NCBI GenBank assembly: GCA_003506795.1
Contig: DNYO01000002.1
Location: 1 to 47,424, forward strand
From: Deltaproteobacteria bacterium
GTDB taxonomy: Bacteria > Desulfobacterota > Syntrophorhabdia > Syntrophorhabdales > Syntrophorhabdaceae
Direction of reading: 5' to 3'
Length of the DNA: 47,424 nucleotides
Below the pieces are notes generated by a model. It was given only the letters and a program-made list of their open reading frames with translations. It did no database searches and was not told the origin of the DNA. Below are positions 1-47,424 of this stretch, one piece after another (positions within the stretch are counted from its first letter, which is position 1; each line of letters starts with the position of its first letter). Both the position numbers and the translations under genes were made by a program.

Positions 1-78
1 CGTGCATTTGGGCCTTGGAATCGTTCCGCAATATATCATATATTTATATTGTTGTCAATAGGATACAAGGAGTTAGAG

Positions 79-102
79 CCTTTTTCAGCAGACCCTAATT
101 AA
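79..102. repeat. 24-bp inverted-repeat copy (CCTTTTTCAGCAGACCCTAATTAA); candidate solo IS terminal repeat, partner of 47401-47424
   Basis: Read directly: 79-102 is the perfect reverse complement of the last 24 nt of the window. Those 24 nt start 13 nt after the stop of the ISL3-type transposase remnant. No transposase-like ORF follows the left copy; 103-419 holds only short ORFs. Confidence 0.6.
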
Positions 103-419
103 TACAGTCTAACTATTTTTTCTTTTTTGTTTCCTTCAAGCGGAGGGCGATTATATAAATAAACAATCTGTGGTGGGAAATAATTACAACGATCGGCGTC
201 TTTCTCATTGAAGGCAAGTTAATCGCGCTTGATGAGAATGAGTTGAGTTTTGTCTGTTTATATGCCGCAACGCCAACGGTTCTCGGCATATTCATGTGGG
301 ATAATGGGTCGACGATGATGCAAGGTCAATTTATGGTAATTCTACCAAAATAATTAGGGAAAGAGGAATTCTCCTTTTTTCAATTTACGATGATTTTATT
401 GGGGAGTTGAAGGAGAAAA

Positions 420-3400
420 ATGATGTTCAATGGAAAAATATCGGCCCATATATTCTTTATTATTGTATGTATTGCCGCTATTGGAGCGAAGATAGGTCAT
501 GGTCAGGCGATATCGTCGGTAGAGCAGCTGAATTATTGTTCGAATGGCGACGATAATCTCAATGAAATTGGGATAATTAATAATTATATATCACATTATG
601 CGAGCGTTTACTCCATTCCCAAGCGCATTCTTCAATATATTGCCTATGAACAATCAAAATATATTCAAAAGGACGTTTCTATTTCCAAGAGCACATTCAA
701 TAAAATCGGCTTGATGGGCATAAACGTCAAGGATAAGAATGCCCACTATGAGCGGATGTTGTTGGGAGATAAAATATTTAATCCTTTCTTTTCTATGCAT
801 TCAGATGAGTCAGCCTCTCAGTTCGTTATAAAAGTTGAAGAAGAGATTGTAGATATAGAAAGACTAAAGAACGATTTTAAATATAATATCGATATTGCCT
901 GCAGAATAGTTTTAGCCCAAAAATGGCAAGATGGGGCTATTGTTCTTCCAGATTATTCTAACGATATCTGGGGAGATACGATCAGCCATGTTTATAGAGA
1001 AAGCCCGAACTCTCATCAAACAACAATTATCCCCGTTGAATATCTGTATGAGCCCTTTATAGGAATATATTTGAATGTTCCCCTCTTTAGACAGAGGCAC
1101 GAAAATAGTTGGTCATATGATTTGATGAATGGAAGCTGCACCATAGCTGAATATGGTTGCTTCATTTCCTCCCAAGCAATGGTCATGAACTATTTCCATC
1201 AAGATATTACTAACCCGAATGAGTACAATGAATGGCTTAATGATGAATCCGGATACACCAATGGATGCTACTATGTCGCAGGAAAAGCAAACGAATTTCT
1301 TAAAAGCAAAGGAATTACAACATTTACTGAGTATAATGCGAAATTATCGGGAACTCCCGCCGCCGATTGGAAAGATATTGACGATCAACTGTCTATAGGT
1401 CATCCCGCAATTATACAAGTTGACTGCGCCAATAAGACTTGTAGCCATTTCATCGTAATTGTCGGAAAGAACGACATTACAAATGACTACTATATGAATG
1501 ATCCGTATAACTATAACGAACAGCTTTATAGTTATTATCCCAATAAGGGTCTTGAATTCACTGGCCGTGCGATGTTCCTATACGGAACCACTGTCCCATT
1601 GAATGAGGAGGCACAATGTGACAGGAGCAGCAGATATCCCGTTTCGATAACAGGCTGGAATTCTGTACTAGGCGTTGCCGGTGAAGCGATAAACCGAGCC
1701 TATTTCTATACTACTGCTACTGATGCAGCTTTGTACGAAAACTATACTATTTGGGCAAAGTATAGATTGGACATGTCTGGATATTATCAAGTACAAGCAT
1801 TTATTCCGGGAAAAATTGGAAATCGCTCTCAAAATACTAAATATCTTATTAAGCATACAGATATCAATAAATTGCCCGTAGAAGAAGAAGTCATTATTAA
1901 TCAAAATGATTATTACAACCAATGGGTTTCTATTGGCAAACCATTTTATTTCAATGCGGATGATTTAGAAAGCTATGTCAGAGTAAATGATAATACTGGT
2001 GAGGATATATCGCTTGGGCGTCGTATAGTATTTGATGCTATCCGATTTGTGCCGAATAATGAATGCGATTATTCAATCGGTCAGAATACAACGGGGCTGG
2101 AATTATATGCCTTTCAAAATGCATATTCCATCGCGGGTGGCCGAGAAAAACTAGGATGCCCTATTAACTACGTCCAAATTAATGGATTTGTTTCTTTTAA
2201 GAATACGACTTGCCATTATCAGACATTTAGTAATGGTTCAATTCAGTACCATCTGCTCGGGGCCTATCAGTTCCGAGCATTCCCAATAGTAAACCCTCTA
2301 TATAATAAATGGGCCTCTTTGGGCTTTAATATCAACAATCCTCTAGGTTACCCAATAAGTGACCTATCATCCTCACAAATCTCAAGCAGAGGGACCGCTT
2401 ATCAATTTCAGGACTATGAGGGAGGCGCTCTCGAGTATCACAGAAGTGGTTCTTTCAATGGGCAGGTATTTGAAGTCCATGGTGAAATATTTAGTAAATG
2501 GAAGACAATGGGATATGCATCCCACTCTATCGGCTTGCCAATCAGTGATGAGAGAGAGGCGCTTGCGTCTTATAAGGGGACAAGTGGACGAGTAAGTGAT
2601 TTCGAAAACGGACATATTCATTGGCATAGAGATGGAGATCACTCAGGAAAAGCGTTCGAAACACACGGTCCAATTGATACCATATACGTTGCTGCCGGGG
2701 GGACTGGTGATGAGCTTGGATTTCCAATATCTGATCAGTATCTCGGAAACAGTGGATACCCGCGCAACGATTTCGAAGGCGGCTACATTACCACTATAGA
2801 CGGCGTGAACTATCAAATATTTTACAACAGCGGTTCCGTGTTATCTGTCGTTCCGAGTAATAGGGATGTTACTGCGATCGCGAGCACAACGACCTTCGCG
2901 GTCTCGAACACGGGAACGGGAACGATGGGTTGGACCGCTTCGGTTGTATCCGGCTCAGCATGGCTCTCGATCTCATCCGGCGCATCAGGCACCAATAGCG
3001 GGACGATCACGGCCTCGTTCACTTCGAATGGCTCGACAGAGAGCCGAACGGGGACGATCCGGGTCACTGCCACCGGAGCAACGGGGAGTCCCAGGGATGT
3101 AACCGTGACCCAGGCAGGGACGGCAACGCAGCCAATACTCGCAGTAGCTCCAGAAAGCCGTTCCGTATCCTCGCCATCCGGAACAACAACTTTTTCTGTC
3201 TCAAATACCGGAACTGGTACGATGAACTGGACGGCTACGGTTGTATCCGGCTCGGCATGGCTCTCGATCTCTTCCGGTTCATCAGGGACCAATAGCGGGA
3301 CGATCACGGCCTCGTTCACTTCGAATGGATCCACGGAGAGCCGGACGGGGACGATCCGGGTCACTGCCACAGGAGCGACGGGGAGTCCCAAGGACGTAAC

Positions 3401-6400
3401 CGTGACCCAGGCAGGGACGGCCACCCAACCAATATTAGCAGTCACTCCGGACGGCCGCTCAGTATCATCGCTATCCGGAACAACGACCTTCGCGGTCTCG
3501 AACACGGGCACGGGAACGATGGGTTGGACCACTTCGGTCGTATCCGGCTCAGCATGGCTCTCGATCTCTTCCGGTTCATCAGGCACCAACAGCGGGACAA
3601 TCACGGCCTCGTTCATTTCGAATGGCTTGGCAGAGAGCCGAACGGGGACGATCCGGGTCACCGCCACCGGAGCAACGGGGAGTCCCAAAGACGTGACGGT
3701 CACCCAAGCAGGGACGTCCACCCAGCCAATACTCGCAGTAGCTCCAGAAAGCCGTTCCGTATCCTCGCCATCCGGAACAACGACCTTCGCGGTCTCGAAC
3801 ACGGGCACGGGAACGATGGGTTGGACCACTTCGGTTGTATCCGGCTCAGCATGGCTCTCGATCTCTTCCGGTTCATCAGGCACCAACAGCGGGACGATCA
3901 CGGCCTCGTTCACTTCGAATGGCTCGACAGAGAGCCGAACGGGGACGATCCGGGTCACTGCTACCGGAGCGACGGGGAGTCCCAAGGACGTGACGGTCAC
4001 CCAAGCGGGAGTTGTTCAAACTGGAATACTGAGGGTAACACCAGAGTATTGGCCGGCCACTCCCTCGGCTGGGACGGCGACATTTGAAGTTGTTAATGCC
4101 GGCTCAGGAACCATGAATTGGACGGCCTCGGTCGCCTCCGGCTCCTCCTGGCTTTCTATCCAATCAGGATCCTCGGGAACGAATAACGGATTGATCACCG
4201 TGAGCTACTCCTACAACGGAGAACCCGCAGCCCGTACCGGCTCGATTATTGTAACTGCCGCCGGAGCTACTGGAAGCCCGGCGCAGTTGACCGTTTTTCA
4301 GGAATCCGAGTCCGTCGAGGGCAGGTATCTCGATTGGACTCAAAAGACGCCCATGCCGGTCGGCAAAGTCAATGCGGCCTGCGCCGTCGTAGATGGGATT
4401 GTCTACGTTATCGGCGGGAATTCCCGATTTACGGTCTATGCCTATAATCCCGTTGCGGACACGTGGACCCAAAAAGCCGATCTCCCCATGGACGGAATCG
4501 ATGAGGGCGGTGCCGTCAGCATCAACAACAAGATCTACGCTATGGGACCGCCGTCGAATTCCGTCTTTTCCTATGATCCTGCAAAAGATGCTTGGACCTT
4601 CCTCTCGACCATGCCAAATCCGCGTCGCGGTGCTTCGGTTCTCGCCGTCGACGAGAAGATCTATATCATAGGCGGATTCGATTCGGGCTACTCCATTGTG
4701 GAGGAATTCAATCCATTCACGAATGTATGGACGCGGAAAACGGATATGCCGACTGGTCGGGGATTCTCGGCCTCGGCTGCCATCGGAAATGAAATCTATG
4801 TGTACGGCGGTCATGTGGGCGGCAGCTGGGATGTGTTGGAGGCCTATGATACAGCCACCGATACTTGGCAAAGCTTCTCGTTCAAGTTCGACTATCCGAC
4901 GCCGAAATCTCTTGCCTCGGCGATTTCCATCCACGGACGCATGTATGTCATTGGCGGAAGATTCGCAGATGCTTCAGCAATCGTCGACGCATACTATCCC
5001 GATTCGAACGCTTGGAGACAGAAAAATTCTCTATTGGTGCCGCGGATCGGTCACGTTTCGGCTCTTGTGGGCGGGCATATCTACGTCATTGGCGGTTCGG
5101 ATGGCAACAATAATATTGCCTCCGTGGAAGAGGGTATATTTTCCGGGGGGTATGACCAATACCTGATTTCCGGGAACGTGAGCCTGGATGGTCAGGGACT
5201 TGCTGGTGTCATCATCAACGGTCTTCCGGGTGCGCGCACGGATGCGAATGGAAATTATAAAAAGCTCGTCGATTGGGGATGGACGAGTGAGGCGGTCCCG
5301 GCCAAGGCAGGGTATTCCTTCGTTCCTTCCAGCCGGACCCATTTCTATATCCGGGAGGACCAGCCAGGTCAGGACTATACGGCCGAAACAATCGTCTCTG
5401 CGGCTTCCATCACGGTAACAACGCCGAACGGCGGCGAGGTTTGGCCCGGAGGCTCAACCCAGAACATACAGTGGAATTCAACCGGCGAAATTCCAAACGT
5501 GAAGATCGAATATTCATCCGATAATGGAGTGAATTGGACGACCATAGCTGCTGAAACCGCGAATAATGGCGCATTCCCATGGGTACTTCCGAAAATCGCC
5601 TCGAGTCAATGCCTGGTTCGAGTGGTCAATGCTGCAGCGGAGACTCCCTCTGACGTCAGCAACGCTGTTTTTTCCATCACGGCCGAGGAATCGCCGATTA
5701 TCGGGCTATCTCGAACGGCGGTTCATTTCGGCATGATACAGAACGGCGATCCGACCAAACCGCAATCCGTAATAATCAGCAACCAAGGTGCGGGGATTTT
5801 ACAATGGACTGCTTCTTCGTCGTCTGATTGGATCTCAGTCAACCCTGCGAGCGGAACCGGCCCCGGTGTTCTAGAAATCGGAATATCTAGAACCGATCTG
5901 TCACCTGGTTCTTATGAGGGGGCTGTCACGATTTCTTCCCAAGGGGCTTCGAATTCACCTCAAATTATCAATGTGAGCCTTAAAATCATGGCCGAGGACT
6001 CCTCTTCTGTTCCCTTCGGCTCGTTTGACACGCCGCTCAACAACGCCGCCGTGATGAGCAGCATCCCGGTGACCGGATGGGCGCTGGACGATGTCCAGGT
6101 GGAATCAGTCAAGATCTATCGAAATCCCGTCGGTGCGGAGAATCCTCCCAATGGACGCGTTTTCATCGGCGACGGTACCTTCGTGGAAGGGACGCGACCG
6201 GACGTCGAAAAAATCTATCCGAACAGCCCGCTCAACTATCGGGCCGGCTGGGGCTACATGCTGCTGACCAACTTCATGCCCGGCGGCGGCAACGGGACGT
6301 TCACCCTCTATGCCTATGCGACCGACAAGGAGGGCCACGAAGTCTTGATCGGCAGCAAGACGATCACCTGCGACAACCTCCACGCGGTCAAGCCCTTCGG

Positions 6401-7190
6401 CGCCATCGACACGCCGACGCAAGGGGGAGAGATCTCGGGGGCCCTCTACTACAACTTCGGCTGGGCCTTGACGCCGATGCCCAACAAGATTCCGACCGAC
6501 GGCTCGACGCTGGGCGTCTGGATCGACGGGCAGTTGGTCGGACGTCCCAGGTATAACAATTTCCGGGACGATATAGCCGCTCTCTTCCCCGGCTACGCCA
6601 ATTCCCAGGGAGCGGTGGGCGTCTTCGACCTCGATACGACCGCTTATGAGAACGGGATGCATAATATTGCCTGGAGCGTCCGAGACGATGCGGGCAATGA
6701 GGACGGCATCGGAAGCCGTTTCTTCTGGATCCTGAACATCGGGAATCCGGAAGCGACGCCCCAGCGAGGCCGGCTCAAAGTTCTATCGGATCTGGAGGGT
6801 TATACCGACGTCTCGTCCTCGCCGACTATGTTTCGTAAGGGCTATGATAGGAACGCGGCCCCAAGAAAGCTTGCGGCGACCTCCGGACAGGAGCTTCGGC
6901 TTCAAATCCGGGAAGTCGAAAGGATGGAGATCGCATTTGGAGAAGCCGCGGGGAAGAGGCGCAGTGATCAGAACCCGGAGACTGGGGGAGACATCTCGAA
7001 TTGGGAAGGCTATCTCGTCTTTGGTGAAGAGCTGCGAAGCCTGCCCATTGGTTCGACTCTTAATTCTTCCGCCGGCATCTTCTCCTGGTTGCCCGGCCCG
7101 GGCTTTTTGGGGGATTACCGGTTGGTTTTCGTGGAGCGCTCGAACCATGTTCGGCGGAACCTCACGGTGAGGATCGTTCCACGCTCCTAG
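420..7190 (+). CDS. giant secreted multidomain surface/cell-wall-associated protein (2256 aa)
   Basis: Longest ORF in the window (ATG 420, TAG 7188-7190) with a hydrophobic signal-like N-terminus (aa 7-30, ...AIGAKIGHGQA). By-eye motifs in order: SLT-like AYEQS...GLMGIN (~nt 570-930); C39-like Cys/His peptidase pattern EYGC...GHPAIIQVD...SHFIVIVG...YMNDP (~1060-1590); golvesin-like beta-sandwich YQVQAFIP...QWVSIG...DAIRFVP (~1620-2055); LGFP-type repeats LGCPI/LGYPISD/IGLPISD/LGFPISD (~2080-2820); 5 x 99-aa BACON-like repeats (2823-4307); six Kelch blades IYVIGG/IYAMG/IYIIGG/IYVYGG/MYVIGG/IYVIGG (~4317-5145); CarboxypepD_reg-like segment (~5166-5385). Further Ig/BACON-like modules run to the C-terminus. 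The CDS call is firm; the domain names are from memory of family patterns. Confidence 0.85.
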   Translation: MMFNGKISAHIFFIIVCIAAIGAKIGHGQAISSVEQLNYCSNGDDNLNEIGIINNYISHYASVYSIPKRILQYIAYEQSKYIQKDVSISKSTFNKIGLMGINVKDKNAHYERMLLGDKIFNPFFSMHSDESASQFVIKVEEEIVDIERLKNDFKYNIDIACRIVLAQKWQDGAIVLPDYSNDIWGDTISHVYRESPNSHQTTIIPVEYLYEPFIGIYLNVPLFRQRHENSWSYDLMNGSCTIAEYGCFISSQAMVMNYFHQDITNPNEYNEWLNDESGYTNGCYYVAGKANEFLKSKGITTFTEYNAKLSGTPAADWKDIDDQLSIGHPAIIQVDCANKTCSHFIVIVGKNDITNDYYMNDPYNYNEQLYSYYPNKGLEFTGRAMFLYGTTVPLNEEAQCDRSSRYPVSITGWNSVLGVAGEAINRAYFYTTATDAALYENYTIWAKYRLDMSGYYQVQAFIPGKIGNRSQNTKYLIKHTDINKLPVEEEVIINQNDYYNQWVSIGKPFYFNADDLESYVRVNDNTGEDISLGRRIVFDAIRFVPNNECDYSIGQNTTGLELYAFQNAYSIAGGREKLGCPINYVQINGFVSFKNTTCHYQTFSNGSIQYHLLGAYQFRAFPIVNPLYNKWASLGFNINNPLGYPISDLSSSQISSRGTAYQFQDYEGGALEYHRSGSFNGQVFEVHGEIFSKWKTMGYASHSIGLPISDEREALASYKGTSGRVSDFENGHIHWHRDGDHSGKAFETHGPIDTIYVAAGGTGDELGFPISDQYLGNSGYPRNDFEGGYITTIDGVNYQIFYNSGSVLSVVPSNRDVTAIASTTTFAVSNTGTGTMGWTASVVSGSAWLSISSGASGTNSGTITASFTSNGSTESRTGTIRVTATGATGSPRDVTVTQAGTATQPILAVAPESRSVSSPSGTTTFSVSNTGTGTMNWTATVVSGSAWLSISSGSSGTNSGTITASFTSNGSTESRTGTIRVTATGATGSPKDVTVTQAGTATQPILAVTPDGRSVSSLSGTTTFAVSNTGTGTMGWTTSVVSGSAWLSISSGSSGTNSGTITASFISNGLAESRTGTIRVTATGATGSPKDVTVTQAGTSTQPILAVAPESRSVSSPSGTTTFAVSNTGTGTMGWTTSVVSGSAWLSISSGSSGTNSGTITASFTSNGSTESRTGTIRVTATGATGSPKDVTVTQAGVVQTGILRVTPEYWPATPSAGTATFEVVNAGSGTMNWTASVASGSSWLSIQSGSSGTNNGLITVSYSYNGEPAARTGSIIVTAAGATGSPAQLTVFQESESVEGRYLDWTQKTPMPVGKVNAACAVVDGIVYVIGGNSRFTVYAYNPVADTWTQKADLPMDGIDEGGAVSINNKIYAMGPPSNSVFSYDPAKDAWTFLSTMPNPRRGASVLAVDEKIYIIGGFDSGYSIVEEFNPFTNVWTRKTDMPTGRGFSASAAIGNEIYVYGGHVGGSWDVLEAYDTATDTWQSFSFKFDYPTPKSLASAISIHGRMYVIGGRFADASAIVDAYYPDSNAWRQKNSLLVPRIGHVSALVGGHIYVIGGSDGNNNIASVEEGIFSGGYDQYLISGNVSLDGQGLAGVIINGLPGARTDANGNYKKLVDWGWTSEAVPAKAGYSFVPSSRTHFYIREDQPGQDYTAETIVSAASITVTTPNGGEVWPGGSTQNIQWNSTGEIPNVKIEYSSDNGVNWTTIAAETANNGAFPWVLPKIASSQCLVRVVNAAAETPSDVSNAVFSITAEESPIIGLSRTAVHFGMIQNGDPTKPQSVIISNQGAGILQWTASSSSDWISVNPASGTGPGVLEIGISRTDLSPGSYEGAVTISSQGASNSPQIINVSLKIMAEDSSSVPFGSFDTPLNNAAVMSSIPVTGWALDDVQVESVKIYRNPVGAENPPNGRVFIGDGTFVEGTRPDVEKIYPNSPLNYRAGWGYMLLTNFMPGGGNGTFTLYAYATDKEGHEVLIGSKTITCDNLHAVKPFGAIDTPTQGGEISGALYYNFGWALTPMPNKIPTDGSTLGVWIDGQLVGRPRYNNFRDDIAALFPGYANSQGAVGVFDLDTTAYENGMHNIAWSVRDDAGNEDGIGSRFFWILNIGNPEATPQRGRLKVLSDLEGYTDVSSSPTMFRKGYDRNAAPRKLAATSGQELRLQIREVERMEIAFGEAAGKRRSDQNPETGGDISNWEGYLVFGEELRSLPIGSTLNSSAGIFSWLPGPGFLGDYRLVFVERSNHVRRNLTVRIVPRS
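2823..4307 (+). repeat. five tandem 297-bp coding repeats (99-aa BACON-like Ig modules) inside the giant gene
   Basis: Repeat units start at about 2823, 3120, 3417, 3714 and 4011 (period 297 nt). Units 1-4 are near-identical at the DNA level; for example ACGACCTTCGCGGTCTCGAACACGGG recurs. Unit 5 has diverged. The protein motif TTTFAVSNTGTGTMGWT..VVSGSAWLSISSG.SGTNSGTITASF.SNG..ESRTGTIRVTATGATGSP.DVTVTQAG is repeated. Confidence 0.9.
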
Positions 7191-7191
7191 A

Positions 7192-7292
7192 GTTGGGGGT
7201 CAGGTCTTAAGATTCAAGTTATCTCGCGACAAAAAACGTCGTTTAATGACACTGTTCGGCAATAGATATCTTGAATCTTAAGACCTGACCCC
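7192..7292. repeat. long hairpin made of two inverted copies of the GGGGTCAGGTCT repeat family, immediately after the giant gene stop
   Basis: 7196-7218 (GGGGTCAGGTCTTAAGATTCAAG) is the perfect reverse complement of 7270-7292. The pairing extends to 29 bp (7196-7224 / 7264-7292) with one mismatch. The loop is about 40-50 nt. It is followed by a C10 run (7295-7304), not a T-run, so it is not a classical intrinsic terminator. Confidence 0.85.
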
Positions 7293-7619: not shown

Positions 7620-8750
7620 ATGTTTCAAAGGACGATTTCTCAAAATCTGCTCGACGGCCTGGGACAACCCGGGAGCGTCTTGATCCTCTATGGTCCCCGC
7701 CAGGCCGGGAAAACCACGCTGGTCCGGCATCTCTTGGCGGGTTTTCCCAAGGCCCTATCCTTTGTCGGGGACGACCTCTACACCCAGTCGCTATTGGCCC
7801 GGCACGAGCTGGAGCATTTGAAGCGGATCGTCGGCGGCGCGACAACTCTTTTCATCGATGAAGCCCAGCGAATCGAGAATATCGGCCTGACCATGAAGCT
7901 GCTCGTTGATAACCTGCCCGTATCCATCATCGCCTCGGGCTCCGCCTCCTTTGAGCTGGCCGATCGGCTGGCCGAGCCCTTGACCGGCCGGGCTCGCATT
8001 TTTCACTTACATCCCCTTTCCTGGGAGGAAGTCGCTGAGAAGTATCGGACGGCGGCGCCCGACGTGGCCCTGGAAGAGATGCTCCGTTTCGGCATGTATC
8101 CCCGCGTGCACACCCTGGGAAGCGACGCGGAGAAGGAAGAGTACCTCTACAACTATGTGAACTCCTACCTCTACCGGGATCTCCTGGCATTCGAGCAGGT
8201 CAGGAAACCGAAGAAGGTCGTCGACCTTCTCATCCTGCTGGCCCATCAGATCGGCCGAGAGGTGGCCGTGTCCGAATTGGCGAACGCCCTGGGCCTGAGC
8301 CAGAAGACGGTGGAGAATTATCTGGATATCCTGGAGAAGATGTTCGTCCTCGTCAACATCCGCGGCTTCAGCCGCAATCTGCGCAAGGAGGTGACCAAGA
8401 CCTCCCGCTATTACTTTTCCGATGTCGGAGTTCGCAACGCCCTGATCCATTCTTTCGCCCGGCTCGATCTTCGCGACGATAGCGGCGGACTGTTTGAAAA
8501 CTGGTTCATCATGGAGCGGATCAAGCAGGCCGGCAATCGGCGTTCCCATAAGGGCTTTTACTTCTGGCGCACCTATGATCAGCATGAGATCGACCTGGTG
8601 GAGGAGGCGGACGGCAAGCTGACGGGTTTCGAGTGCAAATGGTCGCCAAATCCACGGCTGAGAGCGCCGAAAGACTGGCGCCAAAGCTACCCCGACGCCG
8701 GCTTCGAGGTCGTAACGCGCGCGAATTGGATGGAATATTTAGAAACCTGA
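7620..8750 (+). CDS. AAA+ ATPase, AAA_14 + DUF4143 architecture (COG1373-type)
   Basis: 376-aa ORF. Walker A is GPRQAGKTT and Walker B-like is LFIDEAQ. The C-terminal half has the typical DUF4143 pattern (…YLYRDL…VSELA…LGLSQKTVENYLDILE…). An RBS-like GAGG lies upstream. Confidence 0.85.
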   Translation: MFQRTISQNLLDGLGQPGSVLILYGPRQAGKTTLVRHLLAGFPKALSFVGDDLYTQSLLARHELEHLKRIVGGATTLFIDEAQRIENIGLTMKLLVDNLPVSIIASGSASFELADRLAEPLTGRARIFHLHPLSWEEVAEKYRTAAPDVALEEMLRFGMYPRVHTLGSDAEKEEYLYNYVNSYLYRDLLAFEQVRKPKKVVDLLILLAHQIGREVAVSELANALGLSQKTVENYLDILEKMFVLVNIRGFSRNLRKEVTKTSRYYFSDVGVRNALIHSFARLDLRDDSGGLFENWFIMERIKQAGNRRSHKGFYFWRTYDQHEIDLVEEADGKLTGFECKWSPNPRLRAPKDWRQSYPDAGFEVVTRANWMEYLET

Positions 8751-10073
8751 TGCTTCCGGCAGCTCGAGGAGAAACCGCCAGGCTGGGATCACATCGATGG
8801 TCCCGCCGCCGGCCTCGATCCGCTCGTCCTCATTCCGGGTCACAATGGTCCCGGTTTTCAAGTCCAGTTCCGCCATCGCCTCGCGCAAGGCCGCTGTTTC
8901 CCGTTTCCGCGCTTGCGGCTCGGCAAGGGATTCACACACCTGGACCAGCATCTGGGGCCGGCCGTGCCGCGGGACGATGAAATCGACCTCCCGGCCCGTT
9001 TTAGTCTTGTAATAGTGGATTTTCGCGTAAAGGCGTCGAAGGGCCGTGAATACGAGGTTCTCGAGGAGATGGCCGGAGTTGACTAAGATTCCGGACGACG
9101 TCGAAACGACCAGGGCGTGATCGATGCAGTAAACTTTTTTTGGATTGGTATTGCTCCGCGCAAGCGACGGGTCGAATATGCGAACGGTGAACAGAAAATA
9201 GGCATCTTCGAACCATTCCAGATAATCTGCCACCGCGAGCTTTGGAGCTTTATGCCCCAATGACTTGAGATAGCCCGTGAGTTTGTTGACGGAGTAGAGC
9301 GAGGCCGTGTTGTCCACCAGCCAGTGGGCCAGGTCGGCCGCCGCTTTGGGGTGTGAAACATCGTGGCGCTCGACTAGATCCCGAAACAGAATGGTGTGAA
9401 AGTATTCCTGGTGGGTCTTGATCCGCAGATTGCGGCCGAGACCGGCAACTGCGGGGAATCCGCCGGTCTCCCAGTATTCCTCGAAGGCTTTCTGCACAAG
9501 GAGCCGCTTCTTCGTCGACAGCGGGCCTTCGCCGGCGACTCCTTTGAAGTCCAAGAATTCCCTGAACGAGAACGGAAACATCTCCCACGAGAGCGCCCGC
9601 CCGCGCATCTGAGTTGCGATCTCCTTCGATAGCATCCCGGCCGATGAACCGGTCAGATACACCTCGCATTTTTCCGTGCGCATCAAGCGGTCGACGAAGG
9701 GCTCCCAACCGGAAGCGGCCTGGATCTCGTCGAAAAAGCAGTAGATCGTCTCGCTATTCTTTTTCTCCGGGTAGATGGAGAAGTAGGCTTCGACGATCAA
9801 GCCGAGATTGTCCCGTCGCAGGTTGTGCAGGCGGTCGTCAAAAAAGTTCAGGAAGAGAATGTTTTGCCGGGAAACCCCGCCGTCCATAAGTCGCTGGACG
9901 ACCTGAAACATGTATGTCGACTTGCCGCTCCGGCGCACCCCGATGCAGACGGCGGCCTTGCCGCGCGCCGTCTCGATACGCAAACGCCGCGGCACCCCAG
10001 TCTCCAGGCGGGCGTCCTGGAAGTCCAAGATGATGGCTTTGATCGTCTCTATCATAGGGTAGCTCCCGGTCAT
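8739..10073 (-). CDS. AAA+ ATPase, AAA_14 + DUF4143 architecture (COG1373-type), paralogous class to 7620-8750
   Basis: 444-aa ORF. Walker A is GVRRSGKST and Walker B-like is CFFDEIQ, followed by a DUF4143-like C-terminal half. The start may instead be ATG 10055 (MIETIK…), which has GGGAG 7 nt upstream. Its 3' end overlaps the convergent ATPase gene by 12 nt (8739-8750). Confidence 0.85.
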   Translation of the reverse strand: MTGSYPMIETIKAIILDFQDARLETGVPRRLRIETARGKAAVCIGVRRSGKSTYMFQVVQRLMDGGVSRQNILFLNFFDDRLHNLRRDNLGLIVEAYFSIYPEKKNSETIYCFFDEIQAASGWEPFVDRLMRTEKCEVYLTGSSAGMLSKEIATQMRGRALSWEMFPFSFREFLDFKGVAGEGPLSTKKRLLVQKAFEEYWETGGFPAVAGLGRNLRIKTHQEYFHTILFRDLVERHDVSHPKAAADLAHWLVDNTASLYSVNKLTGYLKSLGHKAPKLAVADYLEWFEDAYFLFTVRIFDPSLARSNTNPKKVYCIDHALVVSTSSGILVNSGHLLENLVFTALRRLYAKIHYYKTKTGREVDFIVPRHGRPQMLVQVCESLAEPQARKRETAALREAMAELDLKTGTIVTRNEDERIEAGGGTIDVIPAWRFLLELPEASGF

Positions 10074-10260
10074 CGTTATTCCCAGTTAAGGCCATAACTG
10101 GTAATAAATATACCCGGTTAGACATCCACGAGTCAAGGGGATAATCCGGCCCCTGACCCATTCAACATTTCTTATAAAGGGCCATTATCTGTACGTCTCG
10201 TTATATCACGGTCCTTATCCTTCTTTGTTCATGAAACCAGTCGACAACTTTTGTTGGCAG

Positions 10261-10329
10261 AAATGTTGAATGTTGAGACCTGACCCCCAACGGGCTTGCC
10301 GAAAATGTCAAATGTCAAGACCTGACCCC
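10261..10329. repeat. two direct copies of the (7-mer)x2 + AGACCTGACCCC repeat family
   Basis: Copy A is 10261-10291, AAATGTTGAATGTTG-AGACCTGACCCCCAAC. Copy B is 10303-10329, AAATGTCAAATGTCA-AGACCTGACCCC. Copy A bases 10276-10291 are the exact reverse complement of 7192-7207 (GTTGGGGGTCAGGTCT). A partial copy at 10160-10171 (ATTCAACATTTC) is inverted relative to 10260-10271. Confidence 0.8.
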
Positions 10330-46512: not shown

Positions 46513-46586
46513 AGCGGAAAGAGCTGAGTTTAGAACGTGATAAGCGCTTCGAGAATACTGACTCTTTTCCATCTAGTGTGGGCTGA

Positions 46587-47387
46587 TGCGGTATTAGGGG
46601 CCCCGGGGGGCATGATGTCGATCTCAGCGACTTTCGTCATCGGGGCATCAACGAGTTCTCGATCCGCAAGGGCCACGTTTACATGACTTCCTTCAGCGAT
46701 CTGAAGGCTTCTCGGGTCGTATACCTTGCGGAAGGCCGGAAAAAGGGCGTGGTCGAGGAGTTCCTCGAGGATCTCCAAGCCCGGGAGGTCGATCCCGCCA
46801 AGATCCAGGTCGTTTGCTGCGATATGTGGGATCCCTACCTGAACGAGATCGGGATGTTCCTAAAGAACGCTCCGGTGGTCTTTGATCGGTTCCACGTCAT
46901 GGGCCAAATCAATCTGGCCTTGGAGACTGTCCGCCGTCGGGAGCAGCGGGAGAACACTGTCTTGAAGAAAAGCCGGTTTCTGTGGCTGAGGAATCCGAAG
47001 AACTTGACTGAGAAACAGAAATCGCGGCTGGCCTCTTTGACATCGCAATATTTGAAGACGACCTGCGCCCATCGGATCAAGCTGGCGCTGGCCCGGTTCT
47101 GGGAGATCCGGGATCCCGCCGAAGCCATCACCTACTTGAAGCGCTGGTACAACTGGGCGACGCACAGCCGGCTCTATCCTATCATCCGGGCAGCCCGGAC
47201 TATCAAACGTTACTGGCATGGGATCATCAACTACTTGAAGACACACGTGACGAACGAGACGGTGGAAGGCCTGAACTCGAAGATTAAAACCGCGATGAAG
47301 CGCGCCTACGAATTCAAGCACGTCGACTATCTCCGGACAATAGTCTATCTTGTCGCCGTTCGGCTAAGCTTCAGCTACCCACAGTAA
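46587..47387 (+). mobile_element. 5'-truncated ISL3-family transposase remnant
   Basis: The C-terminal two-thirds of the ISL3 DDE domain are present: …GINEFSIRKGHVYMTSFSDL…VVCCDMWDPY…VFDRFHV…LWLRNPKNLTEKQ…THVTNETVEGLNSKIKTAMKRAYEFK. The frame is open only back to a TGA at 46584-46586. The N-terminal ~150+ aa (zinc-ribbon/HTH part) are absent. The canonical GIDEF reads GINEF. Confidence 0.8.
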
Positions 47388-47400
47388 ATGGAAGAGAGCC

Positions 47401-47424
47401 TTAATTAGGGTCTGCTGAAAAAGG
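47401..47424. repeat. candidate right terminal inverted repeat of the ISL3-type element (window ends inside it)
   Basis: TTAATTAGGGTCTGCTGAAAAAGG starts 13 nt after the transposase stop and is the perfect reverse complement of 79-102. Confidence 0.6.

Follow-up and report, generated by a model that had tools for sequence, protein, structure and literature searches.

The inverted 24-mers bracketing a 47-kb surface-polysaccharide locus are probably the tips of two copies of a multi-copy insertion sequence

The stretch of DNA analysed here, the window, is 47,424 nt long and represents a complete contig, an exact window protein being recorded on a contig of that length. Nearly all of it, positions 103 to 47400, is a unique segment of 47,298 bp (S), defined by Pfam matches, gene calls and single-copy depth and lying, in our reading, between two copies of an insertion sequence (IS) that we call ISx. 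S carries the gene of a giant Kelch/BACON/C39-like/LGFP surface protein (423 to 7190), whose 2255-aa product has a C39-like peptidase domain, LGFP repeats, five to six BACON domains and a six-bladed Kelch propeller. Gene callers start it at the second ATG (423); no protein that begins at the first one (420) is recorded, and all contigs carrying the giant protein stop at the same place. The segment also carries two AAA_14-DUF4143 genes, an ABC transporter, Wzz and Wza, a pathway for NeuB-type nonulosonic acid and sugar nucleotides, a flippase, Wzy, glycosyltransferases, an initiating sugar transferase and the relic of an ISL3 element.

The two AAA_14/DUF4143 ATPase genes are convergent (7620 to 8750 on the forward strand, 8739 to 10073 on the reverse strand). 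A 97-nt near-palindrome at 7196 to 7292 (GGGGTCAGGTCTTAAGATTC…GAATCTTAAGACCTGACCCC) recurs as half-copies at 10254 to 10287 and 10296 to 10329, and this set, which brackets both ATPase genes, looks like a small MITE- or REP-like repeat. GC content is 36 to 46% upstream of the giant gene and across its first ~2.5 kb (window 1 to 3000), 53 to 69% in the rest of that gene and the left half of the locus, and lower, 45 to 55%, in the right third (33 to 46 kb), where the glycosyltransferases and Wzy are found. Such base composition suggests a mosaic locus that may have been exchanged.

At the right end of S lies an internally deleted ISL3-family element of 841 bp (46560 to 47400, forward strand), recognized by Pfam and by alignment to L007, a full 1328-bp relative with a 405-aa transposase and 86% amino acid identity to the window element. 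Its left terminal repeat (GACTCTTTTCCATCTAGTGTGG, 46560 to 46581) pairs with a right repeat (CCACAGTAAATGGAAGAGAGCC, 47379 to 47400) that ends exactly at 47400; the two are complementary at 18 of 22 positions. The left repeat is followed by 57 nt of ISL3 leader. An intact residual open reading frame (ORF) of 234 aa (46683 to 47387) contains the DDE_Tnp_ISL3 domain only (E = 2e-67). In L007 the terminal repeats read GGTTCTCTTCCAT(CC/TT)A(G/C)TGTGGGT, with the stop codon overlapping the right-hand copy. Window positions 46560 to 46616 align with L007 69 to 125 and positions 46617 to 47400 with L007 613 to 1396, so 487 bp are missing internally from the window element. This deletion removes the part that codes for the zinc ribbon and the HTH: the full ISL3 relatives have 405-aa transposases with Zn_ribbon_ISL3 and HTH_Tnp_ISL3, whereas the window element has ISL3-type repeats (GGYTCTYTTCCAT…) and the DDE_Tnp_ISL3 domain but neither of those two. 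It also has GINE where the relatives have GIDE. We therefore take the element, on this alignment, to be an internal-deletion derivative and not a 5′ truncation; it is probably inactive. Its depth in the read graphs is that of a single-copy sequence, and an 8-bp target duplication is absent from its flanks (AGAATACT vs TTAATTAG).

A second ISL3 remnant, with a 234-aa ORF and 83% amino acid identity, sits in an unrelated context at positions 9930 to 10721 of L006 (ENA ERZ25039477 contig_146553). It starts at the equivalent of L007 608, within 5 nt of the deletion edge in the window (L007 613), and has an AT-rich tandem-like array upstream in place of the left repeat. The breakpoints of the two remnants thus nearly coincide at the start of the DDE domain.

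The original prediction drew attention to perfect inverted 24-mers at the two ends of the locus. Indeed, window positions 79 to 102 (CCTTTTTCAGCAGACCCTAATTAA) and 47401 to 47424 are perfect reverse complements. A comparable inverted match arose in none of 100 shuffles of the sequence, and we estimate that a sequence of 47 kb would contain about 4e-6 perfect inverted pairs of 24 nt by chance. The contig has sister assemblies of 47,580 and 47,352 nt, and the 234-aa transposase remnant at its right end has an identical copy on 16 other contigs. Two of the longer assemblies, L001 and L002, are MEGAHIT k141 contigs that reach 117 nt beyond the window end. From the left flank AGAG (75 to 78), the right copy had been expected to continue CTCT, and in these contigs it does. 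The match past 47424 goes on, without mismatch, for at least 141 nt in all: L002, the 47,580-nt contig, is identical to the window across 10,742 nt, and its tail past 47424 is the exact reverse complement of window 1 to 102 plus 39 more nt. The left end of the same contig (L008) also has the extra 39 nt, and its first 141 nt are the reverse complement of its last 141 nt. The 47,580-nt contig can therefore be written as T(141) + S(47,298) + T′(141). Since 141 nt is the k value of MEGAHIT, the repeat length is a lower bound, at least 141 nt per side, with inner edges at 102/103 and 47400/47401; 24 nt is merely the point where the window contig stops, not the size of the repeat. Likewise, Logan contigs, assembled with k = 31, end exactly 30 nt (k − 1) inside T′. 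Such a T-S-T′ pattern is the hallmark of unique DNA whose two ends both run into the same collapsed repeat node.

We aligned Logan contigs from four public runs (two studies) to window 1 to 700. Window positions 1 to 97 proved to be the last 97 nt (1445 to 1541) of a 1541-bp Logan unitig. Its depth was 38 to 98x, against 12 to 18x for the unique 47.3-kb segment, a 3- to 6-fold ratio of unitig means from metagenomes that possibly hold several strains. Hydrocarbon-degrading enrichments are among the metagenomes in which the locus is present at 12 to 18x. The unitig is unbranched internally. The graph branches at position 97 to other flanks (CGTAAAAGCGC…) and again, three ways, at 102, where the paths lead to the start of the segment, to its ISL3 end and to a third flank; together, the two branch points lead to at least 5 flanks. 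The 34-mer at 69 to 102 has a depth of 22 to 44x, which in three of the four runs is about the sum of the depths of the two segment-end contigs. Because the repeat has multi-copy depth and branches to several flanks, we identify it as the end of a second, multi-copy IS, ISx, with about 4 to 5 ends per genome equivalent. Both segment-end unitigs enter the repeat by 30 nt (k − 1) and then stop, and the read graphs contain no alternative neighbour at either end of the segment. As ISx alone adjoins each end, the repeat flanks every copy of the segment at left and right.

We then considered where else this tip occurs. Among GTDB species representatives, a 22-mer of the tip was found only in Candidatus Aminicenantes bacterium UBA4085, at the starts of two contigs (L009 and L010) with different flanks. 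The same ISx end, with at most 1 mismatch over ~100 nt, is present in soil, groundwater and aquatic metagenomes next to yet other flanks. All junctions are common up to …CAGCAGACCC, that is, to GACCC, and diverge afterwards. ISx thus shows what is expected of an IS: multiple copies, a sharp common boundary and unrelated flanks (at least 8 after GACCC, counting the runs and UBA4085). At every readable junction the flank opens with the 6-mer TANNTA, and two more junctions are consistent with this. TAATTA follows the tip at both window ends and probably at two further junctions (one unplaced mismatch each), TAACTA in L009 and two other runs, TATGTA in L010, and TACGTA next to two different flanks. 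All these junctions are read from one side, that of the only ISx end seen. From this pattern, ISx would insert at TANNTA with a 6-bp duplication.

The window ends can now be read base by base. The left ISx copy occupies positions 1 to 95 (reverse strand) with its terminal 95 nt, matching the unitig, with the tip at 95 and the remainder beyond the contig start. The ISx part of the left 24-mer is 79 to 95 (…CAGCAGACCC), the portion shared by every junction up to GACCC, and the TAATTA at 96 to 101 is, by the TANNTA pattern, the presumed target-site duplication copy of this ISx. At the right, a single T at 47401 separates the ISL3 tip from TAATTA at 47402 to 47407, the 6-bp target of the right ISx copy; the first 17 nt of that copy (GGGTCTGCTGAAAAAGG) follow at 47408 to 47424 (forward strand), inverted relative to the left copy, and it continues past the contig end. 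Of the 24 nt, 17 are accordingly ISx end and 6 are preferred target, and the last one matches by chance or target preference. TAATTA is the commonest target seen, and in every case an A comes next, so that the identity of these 7 further nt calls for no special cause.

Several observations on the junctions stand apart. In three of them the two bases past TANNTA repeat the NN, giving TAAT-TAAT (window 96 to 103), TAAC-TAAC (L009 23 to 30) and TATG-TATG (L010 24 to 31). Other junctions read TACGTAAA and TACGTAAT, and the pattern is absent in the Persicobacter relative described below; it may reflect an extended AT-rich target preference or chance. In a soil-metagenome contig (run X13) the junction reads ISx-TAATTAAT-TCGGGAGT-TATGTAGGGTGTCCCCGAATTC, and in UBA4085 (L010 1 to 50) it reads ISx-TATGTATGGTGTCCCCCAATTC. 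The two ISx insertions apparently occupy one orthologous site with an offset of 16 nt, which suggests that ISx inserted independently into a hot spot in two lineages. A Calothrix plasmid match to the 24-mer region, with no transposase nearby, was treated as chance.

The only similar terminus in annotated collections belongs to an IS of Persicobacter sp. JZB09 (CP012852/CP012860-63). This ~1.67-kb element occupies about 20 places on five replicons (plasmid records) of that one strain. Its repeats are GGGTCTGCTGAAATAGCG and GGGTCTGCTTAAAAAGGTCTC, and the ISx tip is identical to its right end at 16 of 17 positions and to its left end at 15 of 17. Its 519-aa transposase has the domains DUF772 and DDE_Tnp_1_2, scores 306 bits against NCBIfam NF033578 IS5_1 (cutoff 275) and is encoded from ~150 nt inside the left tip. 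Perfect 6-bp duplications of the form TANTTA flank four of four copies (TAATTA, TATTTA, TAGTTA and TACTTA). This IS5-family element and ISx have in common a similar terminal sequence (GGGTCTGCT[G/T]AAA[A/T]AG…), TA-rich flanking 6-mers (TANTTA and TANNTA), a size of 1.5 to 1.7 kb and multiple copies in unrelated flanks. However, the likeness is confined to ~20 terminal nt, the subterminal DNA is unrelated, and the hosts differ, a Bacteroidota strain for the one and an uncultured Aminicenantes-type bacterium for the other. On the basis of the ~20-nt terminus, the one-sided TANNTA flanks, size and copy number, ISx, if our main reading holds, is probably a DDE element of IS5-family type. Against this assignment, the textbook duplication length of most IS5 subgroups is not known to be 6 bp.

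The visible end of ISx also gives a hint of its orientation. A near-consensus sigma-70-type promoter at 30 to 58 (reverse strand; TTGACA-17-TATATT, with TG) reads into ISx and agrees with 11 of 12 consensus positions, a score that stands for consensus match alone; no promoter of similar strength was found to read outward to the giant gene. Peptide searches with all open frames, on the inward and outward strands, found no called protein covering the 141-nt end, consistent with a non-coding leader. The inward promoter, the lack of a called protein and the Persicobacter ORF start ~150 nt from the left tip together suggest that the visible end is the left end, upstream of the transposase. In that case the transposase genes of both ISx copies would be directed outward, away from S. 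An outward-strand frame ending AFFSRP-stop mimics the C terminus of the Persicobacter transposase (ETFLSRP-stop); we do not claim it as coding, as no such protein is on record and BLASTP gave no similarity. For the ISx interior, a 40-mer (window 56 to 95) and a 32-mer (window 1 to 32) had no exact match in JGI metagenome contigs; the 40-mer had none in GTDB genomes, and a scan of IMG/VR gave no match either.

These data suggest, with a probability that we put at roughly 85%, that each 24-mer marks the visible outer tip of one of two full-length, mutually inverted copies of a ~1.54-kb multi-copy IS. Read from left to right, the locus would consist of an inverted ISx, TAATTA, S, TAATTA and a second ISx; the IS end that faces S would be the same on both sides and is probably the left one, which bears the promoter. 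The two copies, which we infer to be complete, would collapse to one node of the assembly graph, and every short-read assembler would end the contig inside it; of the repeat, this window would have kept 102 nt at its left end and 24 nt at its right end. The copies would have arrived by independent insertions, the right one happening to land one base from the right tip of the ISL3 element. So read, the bracket is ordinary IS biology combined with a repeat-induced contig break.

The original prediction had taken the 24-mer for an ISL3 terminus, with the right copy at the expected site of the ISL3 right repeat and the left copy as its matching left repeat or a solo relic. The right 24-mer does directly adjoin the ISL3 element, which moreover lacks a target-site duplication. 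However, the window, L007 and L006 are conserved up to …GGAAGAGA(A/G)CC, at window 47400, and are unrelated directly after it. The right repeat is therefore 47379 to 47400; the 24-mer starts one base beyond the tip, at 47401, outside the conserved region, and its partner is 47 kb away. The relatives end …CCCACAGTAAATGGAAGAGA(A/G)CC and diverge at once. The true left repeat is at hand at 46560 to 46581, followed by the 57-nt leader, and the left 24-mer is neither a missing left repeat nor a solo relic of the ISL3 element. Furthermore, the 24-mer region has 3 to 6 times the depth of the single-copy ISL3 element, and the repeat runs at least 141 nt into DNA unrelated to ISL3. These results refute this explanation, and we give it almost no credence. 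Nor was an ISL3 element split or rearranged around the locus, as had also been proposed: it kept both ends and lost 487 bp internally. Insertion of ISL3 into a junction of the left type was likewise rejected, because the DNA to the left of ISL3 is unrelated to the segment start and there is no 8-bp duplication. The outcome is largely one that the original prediction had itself named as counting against it, a dispersed repeat unrelated to ISL3, and the right contig end is, as it had also allowed, an assembly collapse, at the ISx repeat. What stood was the idea that two IS copies flank the locus in the manner of a composite transposon; the IS in question is ISx, not ISL3.

The repeat could instead be a dispersed sequence other than an IS, such as a duplicated gene end, or a graph artefact in which one repeat copy lies beside a partly inverted segment. 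The repeat interior was never seen, and T-S-T′ with T of length k is just what a graph yields. Yet the sharp GACCC boundary followed by TANNTA and then by unrelated flanks, in several genomes and environments, is the behaviour of transposable elements, and the terminus matches that of a transposase-bearing IS in Persicobacter. An inversion polymorphism would predict two neighbours for each segment end and unitigs that stop at 103 and 47400, but the unitigs stop 30 nt into the repeat; a polymorphism of this kind around a single ISx copy was rejected, no alternative neighbour being present at either segment end. A circle or plasmid with one ISx copy was excluded, since both segment ends join the same ISx end and the unitig has no long terminal repeats. 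Overall, we regard a non-IS repeat or an artefact as very improbable. A further alternative accepts ISx and adds function: ISx-S-ISx would be a working composite transposon of ~50.4 kb that moves via its outer ends, or a segment that flips by homologous recombination. As in a composite transposon, the same IS is found at both ends, with at least 141 nt of exact inverted identity, and both ends feed the 1541-bp unitig; the absence of branches within that unitig makes both inverted copies apparently full length. ISx looks mobile, with many flanks in several environments, parts of S are atypical in GC (36 to 50%), and an IS relic lies at the segment edge. Against this, no sign of movement was found: S was seen in one context only, with identical sequence, including exact protein matches, in every assembly compared. 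With ~4 to 5 ISx ends in each genome equivalent, a spacing of 47 kb between two copies is unremarkable, and the TAATTA at both inner junctions is a normal ISx target, which is what two independent insertions would leave. No assembly crossing ISx was present among the 16, 14 and 5 contigs read, none of which exceeds 50 kb. We consider this alternative unlikely, though less so than a non-IS repeat or an artefact. Slightly less likely still is its broader form, in which the ~50-kb unit would move or swap the complete surface-polysaccharide locus and the 2255-aa protein among uncultured Aminicenantes-type bacteria, either by active composite transposition or as a cassette bounded by ISs that can be inverted or exchanged.

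The favoured reading, an ISx copy at each end of S, corrects the nature of the bracket: it consists of two copies of another, mobile IS and not of a split or relic ISL3 element. The locus extends into a ~1.5-kb IS at each side, and binning and annotation should not take the 24-mer for an ISL3 repeat. In addition, Aminicenantes-type genomes sampled from hydrocarbon, aquatic, soil and groundwater sources contain an IS that targets TANNTA and is apparently active. Should the unit be shown to move, an uncultured phylum would offer a case of an entire cell-surface locus mobilized by ISs, a familiar theme in pathogens.

In Tn5 and Tn10, two inverted copies of one IS bracket the cargo, and the Haemophilus influenzae cap locus is flanked by IS1016. 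The present arrangement resembles all of these in that two copies of one IS bracket a cargo. Where the H. influenzae elements flank capsule genes, the cargo here is a surface-polysaccharide locus, and the copies are inverted. In contrast to these systems, S was seen in one genomic context, and as a cargo of 47 kb it is large.
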